In this document: positions 4,954 to 16,251 of the stretch, in pieces
Position numbering within the stretch: position 1 is the first letter of the stretch
Layout of the letters: each line of letters begins with the position of its first letter
IMG/VR virus record: IMGVR_UViG_2531839448_000003
Reading direction: 5' to 3' (one strand)
Length of the DNA stretch: 26,625 bases
Source of the DNA: a virus
Taxonomy: Duplodnaviria; Heunggongvirae; Uroviricota; Caudoviricetes
Made by a program: the position numbers and the translations under genes
The notes under the pieces: model-generated
Seen by the model: only the letters and a program-made list of their open reading frames with translations
Told to the model about the DNA's origin: nothing
Database searches by the model: none

Positions 4954-5160
4954 TTAGTGATTCAGGCCGTTACCGCGTCCGTCGAGAAAAACTTCTACGA
5001 GCAAATCACGGGTATAAGTGCGCTCGATGCCGCGATGCAGATAAAGCCGTCCGCGTAAATTAGCTGATGCAGTCCAGGTACCATCTTTGTGTTTGACCAG
5101 CATTCCTGGCATGACCGCACCGCGATTAACGGTCTGCGTTCCGTAATGTTGATGAACCAT
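4954..5160 (-). CDS. Hypothetical small protein, first gene downstream of the putative pL
   Basis: ATG at 5158-5160 (rc) preceded by AGGAG at 5-nt spacing gives 68 aa (MVHQHYGTQTVNRGAVMPGM...); the six-frame track extends this to 136 aa only by using a TTG start. Confidence 0.4.
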   Translation of the reverse strand: MVHQHYGTQTVNRGAVMPGMLVKHKDGTWTASANLRGRLYLHRGIERTYTRDLLVEVFLDGRGNGLNH

Positions 5161-5429
5161 AAAAACTCCTGCCCGTAAGCTGGGCTGCTGAACATATAAA
5201 GACTTCTGCGCGTATTCAGGCGGTGGATGGCCGCCGGTTGTCATAACTAAGCCGCCTCGTTGAAGCGACTGAGGTATGAAGTGTTGAGTTGATTTCAGCT
5301 GGTCACACCGACGTTCACGCGTCCGCTTCACCCCTCGCACTCCCCGGAGCCTGCTGAAATTCAAGCTGCGGATCTAAGCGGTCATCGCAACGGTGAATCA
5401 GGTGATTGCCGTATCGTTGTGTTGTTGCG

Positions 5430-5530
5430 ACATGGTGATAATAGCTATTGCTATTGATGATATCAATACTTATTGCTATTGCTAGATGTGTTTTGATATT
5501 AAATATTTGATAGCAAAAAGAATTAATTTT
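5430..5530 (-). promoter_or_regulatory. Putative oL/pL operator-promoter region
   Basis: Repeated ATTGCTATTG and a palindrome ATTGATgatATCAAT here; the same TTGCTATTGC motif and a TTGAtggTCAA palindrome recur between cI and cro (8145-8212), suggesting binding sites for one repressor. Confidence 0.45.
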
Positions 5531-5595: not shown

Positions 5596-5645
5596 TGAGG
5601 GGAGGCAAAAGAAAACCCGGCACGGTGGCCGGGACGTTTTATTTC
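5596..5645 (-). terminator. GC-rich hairpin with flanking T-runs, possibly bidirectional; candidate terminator of the cI-cassette transcript
   Basis: CCCGGC-acggtg-GCCGGG at 5616-5633; minus strand follows with TTTTCTTTTGCC, plus strand with ACGTTTTATTTC; sits between the PIN-like gene and the operator-like repeats. Confidence 0.5.
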
Positions 5646-5733
5646 AAAGAAAAATTATGACTAGCGTATCTTGGAAGAAATTCATATAGTGTTAATGTCT
5701 TAACGCCGTGAGAAGCAGCAGCATCCGGGATCA

Positions 5734-6150
5734 TTATTCTTTTTTAGGTTTGCCACCGGATGGTTTCTCATGGGTAATAATAGTATATCCATGTGTCATC
5801 GCATGGGCTATTAAAAAAGCATCTGCTTTTTCATGGCTTGCAAAATCAAACTTTGCCTTTTCGGTAACATCTAATTTAGTTGACCAATTTATTAACTTTG
5901 CATAATTTTCTATTGAACTATGCTCATCTTCGAAGAATGATGATGGTAACTCTTCTTTAATCCATTTACACAATGGATCATCTTTTGCACATAGTTCTTT
6001 TTTTACAGCATTAATGCTATAAATCAGACCATTAATGTGTAAAGCGAGAAGAAAATCCCAAAATATTTTGCAATAATTGAAGTTATATGCAAAGTTTTTT
6101 GCCTCTATGAAGACATTACTATCAATTAAGAATTTTCCATTATGAATCAT
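5734..6150 (-). CDS. PIN-like (DUF4411-type) putative nuclease, candidate toxin/effector
   Basis: 138 aa; N-terminal FLIDSNVFIEA and C-terminal ADAFLIAHAMTHGYTIITHE resemble PIN-fold acidic motifs; AT-rich; start overlaps the upstream stop as ATGA at 6147-6150. Confidence 0.65.
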   Translation of the reverse strand: MIHNGKFLIDSNVFIEAKNFAYNFNYCKIFWDFLLALHINGLIYSINAVKKELCAKDDPLCKWIKEELPSSFFEDEHSSIENYAKLINWSTKLDVTEKAKFDFASHEKADAFLIAHAMTHGYTIITHEKPSGGKPKKE

Positions 6151-7286
6151 AGAGATTCTCGTTTTTTATAAAATTCAACAACTGTATCTGCTTTTACATT
6201 TAGCAGTACGCCTGCTTCCCTTAATGGTAATTGTTGAGACATTGCTTTGGAAATTATTATATTCGTAAGTTTTGGACTGTTACGAACAGGTAATGTGTTA
6301 AAGAAAGAACCACCATTGGATTCTTTTTTGGGCTTATTGTAAGCTTGATCTTTAATTATCTCCAAAGTGTTTCTTTCTATCAAATCTAATTGTAACGCTT
6401 TGATTGCACAAGCGAAATCACTAACCTTAAATAACTTAGAAACCTCTTTTACTCGATAATAATTATTATCGCTGGATGCATTAAGCCAGAAAGATTTGAA
6501 GAGATTATCAGGCATTAAGATTTCAGCAGCAACTTTATTACAAAAAGATTCTATGTTTTTTTCTGTGTCCCACCCAGAGACTCCATCGACTCCAAGCCAA
6601 AGATGAGCCACCTCATGAAATAATGTAAATACCTGCGCAGATAACGCGTCCGAGCTATTTACAAAAATGATCGGAGCAACGCTATCAGATATACAGAAAC
6701 CACGAAACTCTCGCGTGTCAAGTTTTCTTTTATTATTATTACCCACAACACCATTCTTGAAAACTAATACGCCAGTGTCTTCTATTAGTTTTGCCACTTT
6801 AGAAAAATAGCTCTCAAAAGTGACATTTTTTATCTCTTTTTGTATATCAAAATGTATTGTGTTTGCTATGTCTGTAGCAACAACCTTATAATTTAATTTT
6901 CTATTAAATTTAAATTTACCAATAAAATCGAGTGGATCATCATTACCATTTTCTCTTAAATAGTCTTTGTACCACTCAAGTTTATATTCTATATCATAGT
7001 AAACATCAAAAAAATCTTTTCCTAACTCACGGCTATTTATAGCTTGCCTTAAGTCAGGGATCTTGGGTTTGGCTGGAGTTGGTGGCGTTTCAAGAAATAA
7101 AAAACCGAAAGGGATTCCTCCAATTTTTGCCAGTTTTTCTGCTGCGGATTTACTTACCACTCCGTTAAGAAATTTATTAATCTTTTTGGGCATGACTTGG
7201 TCAGCAAGAGTTTCGATAGAAACTCCTTGAGAATTTGCTATCCAATCAATCATCTTCCTAGACAATTGAAATTCAACCGCTGCCAT
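6147..7286 (-). CDS. XRE-type HTH plus ImmA/IrrE-family (HExxH) metallopeptidase domain protein
   Basis: 379 aa; N-terminal HTH-like segment; single HExxH motif in FTLFHEVAHLWLG typical of ImmA/IrrE (COG2856 / peptidase M78); AGGTGA Shine-Dalgarno; AT-rich; immediately downstream of cI on the same strand. Confidence 0.72.
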   Translation of the reverse strand: MAAVEFQLSRKMIDWIANSQGVSIETLADQVMPKKINKFLNGVVSKSAAEKLAKIGGIPFGFLFLETPPTPAKPKIPDLRQAINSRELGKDFFDVYYDIEYKLEWYKDYLRENGNDDPLDFIGKFKFNRKLNYKVVATDIANTIHFDIQKEIKNVTFESYFSKVAKLIEDTGVLVFKNGVVGNNNKRKLDTREFRGFCISDSVAPIIFVNSSDALSAQVFTLFHEVAHLWLGVDGVSGWDTEKNIESFCNKVAAEILMPDNLFKSFWLNASSDNNYYRVKEVSKLFKVSDFACAIKALQLDLIERNTLEIIKDQAYNKPKKESNGGSFFNTLPVRNSPKLTNIIISKAMSQQLPLREAGVLLNVKADTVVEFYKKRESL

Positions 7287-7415
7287 GTTATCACCTAGTT
7301 AAAAAAACCTATTATTCAACAATTATTGTTGTGCACCTGATAGCTAACGTCAAGCCTAATTTATTGCCTTACTACAGTAAGCTGAAAAGCGAAGTGCATA
7401 ATTTTGTTCTGATTT

Positions 7416-8108
7416 CTACCCATGCTTTCTATATGTCTGCGGCATGCTCCCGATGACTTTCCCGAAGATGAACACGCGGTTCATCTCGTCTTTCTCGATC
7501 GGGTCCCACGGTGAGTAGCTCTTGTTATCAGAGATAACCAGCAGCTTATCCTTCATCATTTGCAGGCGTTTTACATGGGCGGTGTCGTCATACAGAAACG
7601 CATAGATACCATCACCGTCGAAAGATTTAACCGTGATATCAACGAACAGCAGATCACCTGGTTCGATCGTTCCTGACATGCTGTCACCACGCACGTTAAT
7701 GATGCGGATATTTTCCGCCTTCCTGCCATCGAACATGTGACGAGCATCGTCAAACGAGTATTCAACCGAGCGTAGAACTTCTACAAACTCACGGTTGATT
7801 ACACCCGGCCCGGCACTGACTTCTATATCAAGAACGTCAATTTTGAAGTATTTGGAATGGCTGACAGCAGGCTTCCCTGATTGTTGACCGTCATTTCTCA
7901 TCGGGCCTATGCCTGAAGAGAGCCATTCTGTTCGAACACCCAATGCATTAGCTATTTCAACAATTTTTGTTGAGCCGCGCGCGTTGCCGCTTGTCAGTCT
8001 CCAGATTGTGGGTTGAGCTACGCCAGACGCCTTTGCAAGAGCGCCTTGAGACATTCCAGATTGTTCCATCGCTAGATTTAAGCGATCAGCAAGAGTTTCT
8101 TTTTTCAT
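7416..8108 (-). CDS. cI: CI-type prophage repressor (HTH plus LexA-like S24 autopeptidase domain)
   Basis: N-terminal HTH (LAMEQSGMSQGALAKASGVAQPTIWRL) and C-terminal S24 motifs (GDSMSGTIEPGDLLFVD, HVKRL); track start 8144 is TTG, first ATG at 8106-8108 gives 230 aa; TATAAAT lies just upstream, suggesting a leaderless pRM-like transcript. Confidence 0.85.
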   Translation of the reverse strand: MKKETLADRLNLAMEQSGMSQGALAKASGVAQPTIWRLTSGNARGSTKIVEIANALGVRTEWLSSGIGPMRNDGQQSGKPAVSHSKYFKIDVLDIEVSAGPGVINREFVEVLRSVEYSFDDARHMFDGRKAENIRIINVRGDSMSGTIEPGDLLFVDITVKSFDGDGIYAFLYDDTAHVKRLQMMKDKLLVISDNKSYSPWDPIEKDEMNRVFIFGKVIGSMPQTYRKHG

Positions 8109-8218
8109 AAGTTTTAATTTATACGCTTGCGTATTGATGGTCAAAACACGTTTTGCTATTGCTTGGATTAATACTCATTGCTATTATTCATTCATTGCAA
8201 TACCAATAGGAATTGATA
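8109..8218. promoter_or_regulatory. Putative oR operator region with divergent pRM/pR
   Basis: Intergenic region between divergent cI and cro containing TTGCTATTGC repeats and TTGAtggTCAA / ATTGC...GCAAT palindromes. Confidence 0.55.
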
Positions 8219-8446
8219 ATGACAAATCAAACCATTCAACTCGCAATCAGTATTACAGGTAGTCAAAAACGACTGGCAGATCTATGCGGTGTAGCCCAAC
8301 CCACAGTTTGGCGTTGGCTACACGGTGGCGGAATTGATGCCCGCTATGTAATGAAAATTGTCTCAGCCACTGGTGGAAAGATTAAACCAGCAGATATTCG
8401 TCCCGACCTCGCACCATTGTTTAACGCGAGTAATTCTGCCGCCTAA
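8219..8446 (+). CDS. cro: Cro/YdaS-like HTH regulator
   Basis: ATG at 8219 with AGGAA upstream (track start 8213 is TTG); 75 aa with HTH (LADLCGVAQPTVWRWL); divergent from cI. Confidence 0.75.
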   Translation: MTNQTIQLAISITGSQKRLADLCGVAQPTVWRWLHGGGIDARYVMKIVSATGGKIKPADIRPDLAPLFNASNSAA

Positions 8447-8470: not shown

Positions 8471-9016
8471 ATGACTATGCAACCACTTACATACCAACAG
8501 ACTAGCGGATTTAGCCCGACTGCGGTGATAAATCGTTCTCAAACAAAACAAGCTCCAGGCCACGAAAAAATCCGTGATGCCGTCCGCGCCTGGTCGGCTG
8601 TAGATAATCAGGATGTCGTTGCCGCACTCATTGTGAATGAGTATCGGGAGCAGGGCGGCGGCACCATCGATTTCCCTGATGATGTCAGCCGTGCACGCCA
8701 GAAGCTGTTCCGCTTCCTCGATAACAAATTCGATTCTGAAAAATACCGAAATAACGTGCGTGAATTGACCCCGGCAATTCTGGCGGTACTACCGCTGGAA
8801 TATCGCGGCCACCTGGTTGAGCAGGATAGCTTCATGGCTCGGCTGGCTGAAATGGAAAAGGAACTCAGTGAGGCAAAACAGGCTGTCATTCTCAACGCAC
8901 CACGCCACCAGAAACTGAAGGAGATGAGTGAAGGCATTGTGTCGATGTTTCGTGTGGACCCGGATTTGGCTGGTCCACTGATGGCGATGGTCACCACCAT
9001 GCTGGGGGCAATATGA
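8471..9016 (+). CDS. YdaT-family protein, cII-position regulator
   Basis: 181 aa; NEYREQGGGTIDFPDD and RELTPAILAVLPLEYRGHL resemble Rac YdaT as recalled; follows Cro/YdaS as in Rac ydaS-ydaT. Confidence 0.65.
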   Translation: MTMQPLTYQQTSGFSPTAVINRSQTKQAPGHEKIRDAVRAWSAVDNQDVVAALIVNEYREQGGGTIDFPDDVSRARQKLFRFLDNKFDSEKYRNNVRELTPAILAVLPLEYRGHLVEQDSFMARLAEMEKELSEAKQAVILNAPRHQKLKEMSEGIVSMFRVDPDLAGPLMAMVTTMLGAI

Positions 9017-11249: not shown

Positions 11250-11623
11250 TTTTTCCCTCCAAATACGATGCCCTCTACGTCTTTGGAAGCTTTTTGTGAT
11301 GACCACTCCTCTGAATCAGGTGATTTAATTAAAAATATTGTATCTCCATCAAAAATCGTATTTGTTCCGTAAAAATTTACATTTGATAGATCACCACCAA
11401 AAACCCTCTGCCCACTCGAGGTAATTGCCTCACCTAATTTAGTAAAATTACCTGCAATAGATGATTTTCTTTTTCCACTTCTATTCAAAGTGGCTTTAAT
11501 TACACCACCACCATCCTTAGAGTTAAATAATTGAATGTCCACTCCAGCAGTTGGTTGTATATATTTTGAAAGCTCTTTCTTGAACTTGTTAATATATTTA
11601 TCTTTGTTTTCTTTGTTGGTCAT
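11246..11623 (-). CDS. Small Gly/Ser/Asn-rich soluble protein, AT-rich moron, upstream gene
   Basis: 125-aa ORF with ATG at 11621-11623; low GC; no recognisable family; translationally coupled to the membrane-protein gene. Confidence 0.5.
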   Translation of the reverse strand: MTNKENKDKYINKFKKELSKYIQPTAGVDIQLFNSKDGGGVIKATLNRSGKRKSSIAGNFTKLGEAITSSGQRVFGGDLSNVNFYGTNTIFDGDTIFLIKSPDSEEWSSQKASKDVEGIVFGGKK

Positions 11624-13949: not shown

Positions 13950-15032
13950 TTAGAACTGGTAAACCATACCTACAGCAACGATATCATCGGTAGCAACGCC
14001 AGATGCTTTCGTGAAATCGCTCTTATCAATCAGGTTGATTTTGTAATCAACAAAAGTGGACATATTTTTGTTGAAGTAATAGGTTGCACCTACATCAATA
14101 TATTCAACCAGGTCCTGATCACCCCACGCACCCAAGTCTTTTCCTTTAGATTGCAGGTAAGCAACGGACGGACGCAGACCGAAGTCGAACTGATATTGTG
14201 CAACTACTTCGAAGTTTTGTGCTTTGTTGGCAATATGGTTATTACCAAAAACAGTCATGTTCTGGGTTTCAGAATAGGTGGTAGCCAGATAGATGTTGTT
14301 CGCATCATATTTCAGACCAGCTGCCCATACTTCAGCATTTTGACCAGATGCATTCAGGCTGTTGTTACCGTAGATAACCTGATTATTAGTGCGGTCAGAT
14401 TTAGCATAGGTTGCACCTACACCGAATCCTTCATACTCATAAGTAGTGGAGAAACCGAAACCATCACCATTAGCTTCAGTTACGTCAGTGCGGTCATTTT
14501 TACCCTGATACTGAGCAGCAAAGTTCAGACCATCAACCAGACCAAAGAAGTCGTTGTTACGATAAGTTGCAACACCAGTGGTGCGACCAGTCATGAACAC
14601 ATCTGTTTGGGTCCAGGTATCGCCACCGAATTCTGGCAGAACGTCAGTCCACGCACCGATGTCATATGCTACACCGTAGTTACGGCCGTAATCGATTGAG
14701 CCGTAGTCCCCGAATTTCAGGCCTGCAAATGCAAGACGGGTTTTGTCTTTGGAGGAGCCTTGAGATTCAGCGCGGTTGCCTTTGAATTCATATTCCCACT
14801 GACCGAAACCAGTCAGTTGATCGTTGATTTGGGTTTCACCTTTGAAGCCAAGACGGGCATAAGTAGTATCACCATCATCTGCATCATTAGAGGAGAAGTA
14901 GTGCTTGGCATTAACTTTCCCATATAGATCCAGCTTGTTACTGTCTTTATTATAAATTTCAGCTGCCTGAGCAGACATCGCCATCAGTACTGATGCAGCT
15001 ACAGCAGAAATTGCCACTGTTAATTTTTTCAT
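13950..15032 (-). CDS. nmpC: OmpC/NmpC-family outer-membrane porin
   Basis: 360 aa with signal peptide ([23 protein letters not shown]|AEIYNKD), porin-like sequence ending in ...VGMVYQF; intact. Confidence 0.92.
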
Positions 15033-15460
15033 CGTGAGCCCTTTTTTTTGAACTATTATTAAAAAATGATGTCACTGCGCGATAAATATTCATCTAATCA
15101 ATGTGATTATTTCAAGATGTAAGTTTTGGTTTCTCGTTTGATTTGTGAAGTAGATCTCTATTTTTATCTGAACTTTTTTCTATCGAATCCTATTCATGGC
15201 TCTTGGCTGAATAAAAATAAATCTATTAGCCAATTTATATTAACGGCTGTTATTTATAAGTGCTCTGTAATTTGAAGGTTCAATTTAAATCGGCTAAAAA
15301 TAACGCTGGAAATTATTTGCTGGTTATTTGTTGAGATTTGCTTATGTATTTGTAGTGGTGTTTTCAATACTCGGTAGCATTCTCGCAAATATCATTTTGT
15401 GGTTTACGTACGTAAAAAATTGGTTATGCTGTTAAGAGTGGTTACTTCGTCACACAGCTT

Positions 15461-15496
15461 AAACCCGCCGTCGAGCGGGTTTTTCCATTTTTTGAG
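15461..15496 (+). terminator. Intrinsic terminator upstream of the lysis cassette (tR'-like)
   Basis: AAACCCGC-cgtcga-GCGGGTTT hairpin followed by TTCCATTTTTT, about 110 nt before the holin start. Confidence 0.6.
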
Positions 15497-15605
15497 TCTC
15501 GATATTAGCTGATAACCCAATACCTGAGTTATTCACTGACTCCGAGTCTGTTACGTTTCGTAGTATTCCCTCAATTTACACCCGCTTTGTCTGCGAGGTG
15601 GGGTT

Positions 15606-15821
15606 ATGAAATCCATGGATAAGTTAACAACGGGTGTCGCCTATGGCACCTCAGCAGGTAGTGCCGGTTACTGGTTTTTACAGCTGCTCGATAAAGTCAC
15701 GCCCTCACAGTGGGCAGCAATAGGTGTGCTGGGTAGCCTGGTATTTGGCCTGCTGACGTACCTGACAAACCTTTATTTCAAGATTAAAGAAGATAAGCGC
15801 AAGGCTGCGAGAGGTGAATAA
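15606..15821 (+). CDS. essD: Holin, phage-21 S-type pinholin with dual start
   Basis: 71 aa with the M1-K-S-M4 dual-start motif ([24 protein letters not shown]...), resembling S21 as recalled; one TM-like segment and a charged C-terminus; TAATG overlap with the endolysin. Confidence 0.9.
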
Positions 15822-16251
15822 TGCCTCCATCATTACGAAAAGCCGTTGCTGCTGCTATTGGTGGCGGAGCAATTGCTATAGCATCAGTGTTAATCACTGG
15901 CCCAAGTGGTAACGATGGTCTGGAAGGTGTCAGCTACATACCATACAAAGATATTGTTGGTGTATGGACTGTATGTCACGGGCATACAGGAAAAGACATC
16001 ATGCTCGGTAAAACGTATACCAAAGCAGAATGCAAAGCACTCTTGAATAAAGACCTTGCCACTGTCGCCAGACAAATTAACCCGTACATCGAAGTCGATA
16101 TACCGGAAACAACGCGCGGCGCTCTTTACTCATTCGTTTACAACGTGGGTGCTGGCAATTTAGACTGGCCCCCTGAATCTCCAGACAACCAATATCACTT
16201 ATTTAAGTGATAGTCTTAATACTAGTTTTTAGACTAGTCATTGGAGAGCAG

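Follow-up and report, generated by a model that had tools for sequence, protein, structure and literature searches.

A VapBC52-type cassette beside a prophage repressor gene

The stretch of DNA analysed here, 26,625 nucleotides (nt) of the Caudoviricetes record IMGVR_UViG_2531839448_000003 and called the window below, carries a two-gene cassette on its minus strand, just downstream of a cI-type repressor gene. The first gene (6147..7286) encodes a protein of 379 amino acids (aa) that joins a helix-turn-helix (HTH) domain to a zinc peptidase, and the second (5734..6150) encodes a 138-aa protein that is a truncated DUF4411 (PIN) toxin. We consider it likely that the two genes form a self-contained, horizontally acquired toxin-antitoxin (TA) cassette of the VapBC52 type in the rexAB slot of a lambdoid prophage, of which the window holds a copy that is most likely toxin-null with an intact orphan antitoxin. 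The pairing has been described before: the combination of an HTH-IrrE peptidase antitoxin with a DUF4411.1 PIN toxin has already been characterised as VapBC52, and the locus is a further member of this type.

Both proteins match chains of the Mycobacterium tuberculosis VapB52-VapC52 and VapC52 structures (PDB 9vzy and 9vzz; Singh et al., NAR 2026, PMC13273310), and the toxin-antitoxin reading given in the original prediction, which was made from the letters of the window, is right. The toxin-family profile matches chain 9vzy_D with E=1.1e-12 and chain 9vzz_A ("DUF4411 family protein") at a similar level (~1e-12), while the antitoxin-family profile matches the 393-aa chain 9vzy_A ("HTH cro/C1-type domain-containing protein") over residues 10-332 with E=2.9e-21. 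Toxin and VapC52 share 30% identity over 119 aa. VapC52 (Rv2514c) is a DUF4411 PIN RNase that cuts tRNAs in the variable or anticodon loop and forms an unusual open dimer via its C-terminal helix alpha8 (PMC13273310). VapB52 (Rv2515c) consists of a controller-protein-like N-terminal HTH, a CapP/IrrE-like peptidase in the middle and a C-terminal four-helix domain. Its binding to the VapC52 dimer is 1:2 and requires the N-terminal domain, while the C-terminal domain blocks the active site. When activated by single-stranded DNA (ssDNA), the VapB52 peptidase cleaves off its own N-terminal domain close to an F75-R76 motif (PMC13273310).

The cassette resembles VapBC52 in its gene order, with the antitoxin gene first, in a DUF4411 PIN toxin with acidic residues and an extra C-terminal helix, and in an antitoxin of ~380-415 aa composed of an HTH, an HExxH+E peptidase with an internal HTH and four helices, with no GAF domain. 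The antitoxin linker D78-L79-R80 aligns with the D-F-R of VapB52 that includes the self-cleavage motif, and H224, H228 and E246 occupy the positions of the zinc ligands. The setting is different: the cassette resides beside cI in AT-rich lambdoid prophages of Enterobacterales, whereas VapBC52 is encoded on the mycobacterial chromosome. A further difference is the truncation of the toxin in the window.

Bioinformatic predictions of the same pairing are available. "HTH + DUF955/COG2856 + DUF4411.1" was predicted as a three-component TA system (Makarova 2009, PMC2701414; Matelska 2017, PMC5499597), and the NetFlax ImmA node D25 is paired with PIN-like toxins (PMC10440598). These predictions share the architecture and gene order and note the abundance of the genes in phages and prophages, but they are bioinformatic only and describe neither the cI-pL slot of lambdoid prophages nor toxin-null alleles. 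Toxicity of Rv2514c and its rescue by Rv2515c were shown in 2019 (TASmania). The original prediction had left room for the pairing being novel and had named identity with a characterised system as grounds for refutation; the descriptions of 2009, 2017, 2019 and 2026 come near to that outcome.

A frameshift truncates the toxin gene

The 138-aa open reading frame (ORF) on which the original prediction was built exists, but it ends at 5734 only through one missing A, which that prediction had overlooked. In the otherwise identical prophage L001, the toxin gene is 513 nt long and encodes 170 aa (WP_000581650.1, RefSeq). The only difference between the window and L001 over 2.1 kb is a single A missing from an A7 run, which reads A6 in the window (5740..5745, minus strand), and residues 138-170 of the toxin are lost. 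The rest of the gene persists as an out-of-frame 3' remnant (5639..5733, minus strand), in which the native frame encodes RIMIPDAAASHGVKTLTLYEFLPRYASHNFSLK before a stop at 5641-5639; the indel aside, it is identical to the intact allele. The native 170-aa frame ends at 5639, 5 nt short of the stem of a terminator. A cassette is present in 33 of 5,426 complete E. coli genomes, and all 33 have the A7 run and a 170-aa toxin gene. Close homologues of the toxin are 167-174 aa long.

The family assignment of the truncated product is clear, with a match to Pfam DUF4411 (E=1e-31) over profile positions 1-130 of 159 and to phrog_11126 (2e-54) over positions 2-134 of 167. The Pfam match and the VapC-like fold bear out the PIN-like DUF4411 call made earlier. 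No PADLOC family (E<=0.1) and no NCBIfam model matches the protein. The acidic residues D10, E52, D110 and E128 are invariant in the toxin alignment (A1), and all four are retained in the 138-aa product. The tail lost from it contains the conserved motif RIMIP(D/N)AA..GVKTLTLYEFL..NFS; among the 150 top-ranked representatives of a family with ~4,500 members at E<=1e-3, 145 have alignments that span the deleted segment. In an AlphaFold model of the full-length toxin (pLDDT 85.4), the lost tail forms a helix (141-147), a strand (152-153) and a second helix (155-166), and Foldseek matches this model to the VapC toxins 3h87, 5ecd and 6a7v at probability 1.0. The truncation removes the equivalent of the VapC52 dimerisation helix. 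With its stop at residue 138, the window copy lacks a complete toxin domain, which is present in the 170-aa allele (L001/P0001).

Our data suggest that the toxin of the window is most likely unable to fold or dimerise, leaving an orphan antitoxin. The 138-aa "DUF4411 protein" is best described as a frameshifted allele, and the window copy is probably toxin-dead and a member of the cassette family all the same. The earlier picture of a working defence or addiction module in the lysogen does not fit a copy whose effector is frameshifted and which is probably non-working. Recoding at the A run offers an unlikely way around the lesion: the AAAAAAG heptamer is out of frame for a dnaX-type -1 slip, and six As are short for transcriptional slippage.

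Five contigs, drawn from no fewer than three read sets and including a 2024 assembly, encode the exact 138-aa product. Two single-nucleotide polymorphism (SNP) haplotypes are represented among them, each of which also occurs with A7, and the prophage backbone is of two kinds: one is located next to icd, the other next to proA and has a DndB gene. This spread argues for a genuine and probably recurrent mutation. The toxin gene contains a second A7 tract (5998..6004, minus strand; codons 50-52), which is intact in the window, and mutated alleles are known at both tracts. One base of the second tract is deleted in L061 (~5147-5150 of that locus; window 5998-6004). In L049 (5154-5156; window 5995-5997), a single G->T change turns the codon of the catalytic E52 into TAA. 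The antitoxin gene is intact in both loci. A 138-aa toxin (P0015) is also encoded in Providencia-like contigs (L031-L033; ERR59xxxxx), where the antitoxin is split into 164 + 210 aa and the breaks in rep_O vary among contigs. This pattern points to decay or assembly noise, and we do not rely on it as independent evidence of truncation.

Architecture of the antitoxin

The antitoxin comprises an HTH domain (residues ~1-65), the linker D78-L79-R80, a zinc peptidase and a C-terminal four-helix domain (~328-378). It matches Pfam Peptidase_M78 (E=1.2e-13) with an intact HExxH motif and, from end to end, phrog_2439 (3e-76). Its IrrE/ImmA/CapP-type peptidase (H224, E225, H228, E246) includes an internal HTH. 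In an alignment of 30 antitoxin homologues, down to 36% identity (A2), the motifs H224-E225-x-x-H228, E246-x-x-C249-N250 and D78-x-R80 are invariant, and linker position 79 is Leu or Phe in all 30 proteins.

The AlphaFold model of the antitoxin (pLDDT 88.3) shows five N-terminal helices (residues 10-64), a four-strand peptidase core and further helices, the last four of which form the C-terminal end. No strands are predicted after residue 237, and the protein therefore appears to have no GAF domain. The best solved structures in a Foldseek search are CapP (7t5t), IrrE (3dti) and ssDNA-bound PprI (8sln). Together with the Pfam match and the HExxH motif, the CapP and IrrE matches substantiate the ImmA/IrrE assignment of the original prediction, and the structure prediction that it had proposed as a check returned predicted folds of the expected kinds, IrrE/CapP-like for the antitoxin and VapC-like PIN for the toxin. 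The proposed HTH-like N-terminus fared less evenly. It is supported by the AlphaFold model, by weak Foldseek matches to C.BclI and C.AhdI and by alignment to the N-terminal domain of VapB52, but no Pfam HTH family matches the N-terminus of the 379-aa protein. The profile searches that had been suggested likewise gave Peptidase_M78 and DUF4411 but neither a Pfam HTH family nor a PADLOC match for the toxin. The match to NCBIfam NF052239 (spr1629 family repressor/antitoxin) reaches 24.6 bits, against a curated cut-off of 335.

The cassette as an autonomous unit

The two ORFs (379 and 138 aa, both minus strand), their ATGA overlap, their low GC content and their position just downstream of cI are as originally described. 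The toxin ATG (6150-6148) lies over the antitoxin TGA (6149-6147), giving a stop/start overlap (6147..6150, minus strand) of the kind associated with translational coupling, and the genes abut or overlap in all related loci. GC content is 0.30-0.37 over positions 5800-7200 versus 0.47-0.53 on either side. The cassette is placed between cI and OL/pL, as is rexB-rexA in lambda.

A promoter scan identified a sigma-70-type promoter upstream of the antitoxin gene (7325..7353, minus strand; TTGACG, 17 nt, AACAAT). Across eight genera, TTGAC(G/C), a 17-nt spacer and AACAAT or AATACT are found between the repressor and antitoxin genes; TTGAC, AAnAnT and the 17-nt spacing are invariant, while the sequence of the spacer diverges. 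An intrinsic terminator (5607..5633, minus strand; -11.8 kcal/mol) follows the toxin gene, with an all-GC 6-bp hairpin (5633->5616) and then the U-run TTTTCTTTT. Because it has its own conserved promoter and its own terminator, the cassette is an autonomous moron. A terminator scan found no terminator between cI and the antitoxin gene. Read-through from pRM, from which the cassette had been supposed to be expressed, is possible, though the conserved promoter means that it is not required.

In all 30 of the related loci examined, the antitoxin gene directly precedes the toxin gene. Twelve of these are independent genome hits in Enterobacterales, Methylobacter, Succinivibrio, Hydrogenothermus and Mediterraneibacter, a range from Enterobacterales to Aquificota and Firmicutes, and the two genes strictly co-occur across phyla. 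The same order is seen in 31 of 32 IMG/VR contigs; the exception has no upstream DNA. Cassettes recur in prophages of Escherichia, Klebsiella, Proteus and Providencia; in prophages they follow repressor genes of at least five unrelated types and, if an N gene is present, precede it. Of the 32 viral loci, 29 have a same-strand repressor gene upstream. In Providencia and Proteus prophages the cassette sits exactly between cI and N, and the positional analogy with rexAB holds. In E. coli, the same immunity module is found in prophages at icd, ybhC and proA. The pair also occurs, at 33% identity, on a non-phage integrative island beside an integrase and HicAB. Searches of 50,697 phage records (megablast, tblastn) did not find the cassette; they matched the pL region and gave one hit at 27% identity. 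In Klebsiella-type prophages (L009-L012, L051-L053, L058-L059), the cassette follows a 155-aa RacR-like repressor that consists of an HTH only and lacks an S24 domain.

Comparison with other systems

The original prediction had pointed to RosmerTA-type systems. The cassette resembles RosmerTA in its fused HTH and M78 peptidase antitoxin, its association with defence and the variable partners of such antitoxins. However, no RmrT model, nor any other PADLOC model, matches the toxin, and Rosmer toxins are not DUF4411 proteins. The PADLOC RmrA models match the antitoxin weakly (E=6e-8 to 8e-4, the best of them between 1e-7 and 1e-8) and partially, mostly in the peptidase core, below its best PADLOC match, capP (9.8e-15). 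On the models available, we do not assign the cassette to Rosmer.

CapP/CapH, IrrE/DdrO and ImmA/ImmR share the peptidase fold and include the best structural matches of the antitoxin, and sensing of ssDNA or DNA damage is known for CapP and IrrE. In contrast to the cassette, their substrate is a separate repressor and their output is transcription, and CapP and IrrE contain a GAF domain. The cassette differs from CapP/CapH in its fused HTH, the lack of GAF-like strands and its nuclease partner; its neighbours are cI and pL, with no CBASS genes, and membership in CapP/CapH was rejected. With canonical type II VapBC modules it shares a PIN-fold toxin whose best Foldseek matches are VapC proteins. 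Antitoxins of these modules are small and of the AbrB, RHH or PhD type, whereas the one described here is a large three-domain protease, and the homologous VapBC52 assembles 1:2.

The interval between cI and N, where rexAB and bstA are found, is well known as a mosaic region and a hotspot for defence genes. The cassette shares with lambda RexAB and Salmonella BTP1 BstA the slot downstream of cI and likely expression in the lysogen. There is no relationship in sequence or fold, the mechanisms differ, and no Rex family is found among the Pfam, PHROGs and PADLOC matches.

Proposed mechanism and alternative explanations

By analogy with VapBC52, the antitoxin would hold the toxin dimer inactive in a 1:2 complex, with its N-terminal domain docked on the toxin and the active site shielded by its C-terminal helices. 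The zinc peptidase would be switched on by ssDNA, whether supplied by an infecting phage or arising through DNA damage, and would then sever its own N-terminal domain at the D-[L/F]-R linker. Once released, the PIN toxin would cleave tRNAs, so that translation would stop and growth arrest or abortive infection would follow. Defence is a plausible role, although it is unproven even for VapBC52. We put forward only tentatively, as a possibility that we ourselves regard as doubtful, that the cassette of Enterobacterales prophages is a lysogen-expressed abortive-infection or superinfection-exclusion system in the rexAB slot that senses ssDNA without a cysteine switch, and that its cost explains the recurrent toxin-null alleles at the two poly-A tracts. 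Since SOS induction of the prophage itself makes ssDNA, the module would need to be silenced or tolerated during induction. Toxin-null alleles leave orphan antitoxins, which might neutralise homologous toxins brought in from outside.

Should the intact E. coli allele function as VapBC52 does, temperate coliphages would be added to the range of a very recently described TA class, which combines a self-cleaving antitoxin protease that senses DNA with a PIN toxin that cuts tRNAs. The cI-N defence hotspot would then have a further occupant besides RexAB and BstA. The cassette would also offer a tractable E. coli/lambda setting in which to study the discrimination between ssDNA of an invader and of the prophage's own induction, the dispensability of the cysteine switch and the repeated loss of the toxin.

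Several observations weigh against the reading of the locus as a VapBC52-type cassette with a dead toxin. Identity to VapBC52 is low, and the C-terminal domain of the antitoxin cannot be aligned by sequence, so that it matches in architecture only. The zinc-capping "cysteine switch" of VapB52, C229, corresponds to S237, and Ser is found at this position in at least 90% of the aligned proteobacterial homologues. IrrE and some CapP homologues likewise lack the switch, and control of activation may differ in proteins with Ser at this site. The enterobacterial members are known from sequence and models alone, and toxicity, the 1:2 complex, self-cleavage and tRNA cleavage would carry over to them from the M. 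tuberculosis pair. In E. coli ATCC 43886 (L036; NZ_CP024256.1, 2249-4165), IS1 is inserted in the antitoxin gene (equivalent to window ~6150-7286), leaving pieces of 188 + 205 aa beside an intact 170-aa toxin, and strain E2528-C1 has the same arrangement. Such viable strains are unexpected if free toxin is lethal; either the insertion is polar or the toxin is tolerated at native levels. Protection against phage D29 was obtained with overexpressed VapC52 alone and not with co-expressed VapBC52 (PMC13273310). Two further points concern the lesion itself. The 138-aa product keeps the full set of four invariant acidic residues, and residual activity is possible. The indel falls within a homopolymer, and a second homopolymer distinguishes the window from the Logan assembly of SRR059930 (L005), which shares its haplotype: in L005 the A7 run at window 7301, in the 5' leader of the antitoxin gene, is one A shorter. 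This difference points to noisy homopolymer lengths in one or both assemblies, and a sequencing error in the source strain is therefore possible.

The last point leads to the view that the module is intact in the real strain, with an ordinary 170-aa toxin gene from which sequencing or assembly dropped an A. A lesion of 1 nt in a 7-base homopolymer, the A7 run of every cassette-bearing complete genome, the discrepancy at 7301 and the lack of secondary decay elsewhere in the toxin gene speak for this view. However, A6 is called in five contigs and at least three read sets, on another backbone and SNP haplotype too, and the E52 stop in L049, being a substitution, cannot be a homopolymer error; we regard this view as unlikely. 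It is improbable, in our judgement, that the 138-aa protein retains its nuclease function, for instance as a monomeric or differently regulated PIN protein, and that the module functions in spite of the frameshift. The retained D10, E52, D110 and E128 and the presence of the allele in several strains with no further decay would be compatible with this, but the predicted strand and both helices of the tail are gone, the segment is kept almost throughout the sampled family representatives, the equivalent helix builds the VapC52 dimer interface and the gene offers no in-frame slippery heptamer for a programmed -1 shift.

The role of the intact cassette raises separate questions. It could mainly serve addiction or stabilisation by post-segregational killing, or act as a stress-response TA system, rather than in anti-phage defence. 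Rv2514c/Rv2515c behaves as a classical toxic/rescue pair, the co-expressed VapBC52 gave no protection from D29 and the module is also found on non-phage islands by integrase and HicAB genes. Recurrent toxin-null alleles and the IS1-broken antitoxin in viable strains suggest in turn that any addiction is weak, exclusion and abortive-infection genes are typical of the cI-N slot, and defence systems are enriched for ImmA-type antitoxin hubs; on this evidence a role chiefly in addiction or stress seems somewhat unlikely. Finally, the 379-aa protein might primarily be an ImmA/ImmR-like regulatory protease of the prophage that cleaves the neighbouring repressor or a Cro/CII-type HTH protein, with the DUF4411 protein as an accessory. 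ImmA/ImmR and IrrE/DdrO act in this manner, a repressor gene usually lies upstream on the same strand, and some of these repressors, such as the RacR-like proteins, have no S24 autocleavage domain. In the window, though, cI has an S24 domain of its own. The pair stays together where there is no neighbouring repressor, on the integrative island and in many other loci, the repressor types vary while the pair co-varies, and the solved homologue VapB52 cleaves itself rather than a partner. A primarily regulatory protease is thus highly improbable. We retain the reading of a VapBC52-type cassette, toxin-null in the window.

Operators and neighbouring genes

The near-perfect palindrome TCAACAATTATTGTTGT (7316..7332) overlaps the -10 hexamer of the cassette promoter, and a copy with 90% similarity lies within cI (7956-7975). 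The antitoxin HTH might use it as an operator. As a conserved operator it was rejected: it is absent from L009 and L020, differs in L019 and is not kept in Klebsiella, Rosenbergiella or Proteus.

The downstream boundary of the slot is formed by OL-type operators with a pL-like promoter (5432..5505; promoter 5466->5438, minus strand), while OR-type operators (8132..8187) lie between cI and a cro-like gene. The OL-type region 5432-5480 and the OR-type region 8137-8185 are 76% identical, and the word TTGCTATTG is found only at 5448, 5473 and 8153 (three occurrences versus 0.4 expected by chance). Both the GC hairpin with its T-run (5616-5633) and the operator repeats common to OL and OR had been recognised in the initial reading of the window and were recovered here. 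No N-like ORF is present in 5165-5440, between the pL-like promoter and a kil-like gene, where related Providencia prophages carry an N_peptide gene at the corresponding position. A put-like antitermination RNA between pL and kil was sought since the N gene is absent, but the fold is no better than that of shuffled sequences (z=-0.7) and the candidate was dropped. A scan of the whole window gave no Rfam match.

The repressor gene itself lies outside the cassette, as its upstream neighbour (7416..8144, minus strand; RefSeq start at 8108, giving 230 aa). The product of 7416..8108/8144 contains HTH_3 (E=1.5e-6) and Peptidase_S24 (E=1.5e-18) domains according to Pfam, and in L001 it is annotated as an XRE family regulator (WP_001295669.1). 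The divergent, cro-like gene (8213-8446, plus strand) matches Pfam YdaS_toxin (1e-14), and the gene in the cII position (8471-9016, plus strand) matches YdaT_toxin. The immunity region is of the Rac type, and the "toxin" names of YdaS and YdaT refer to regulators at the cro and cII positions.

The window, which begins with the integrase gene of a lambdoid prophage integrated next to icd, is 100% identical to AFEB01000020.1 (GCA_000225245.2) over 14,150 bp. Between the Q antiterminator and lysis genes it carries a gene for an OmpC-family porin (13950-15032, minus strand), annotated as ompC in L001. Prophage-borne porins are a known type of lambdoid cargo. The L001 prophage, from E. coli CV839-06, has an IS1A insertion (15090-15856) with a target duplication of ~10 bp, and the corresponding site in the window (~11478-11487) is free of it.

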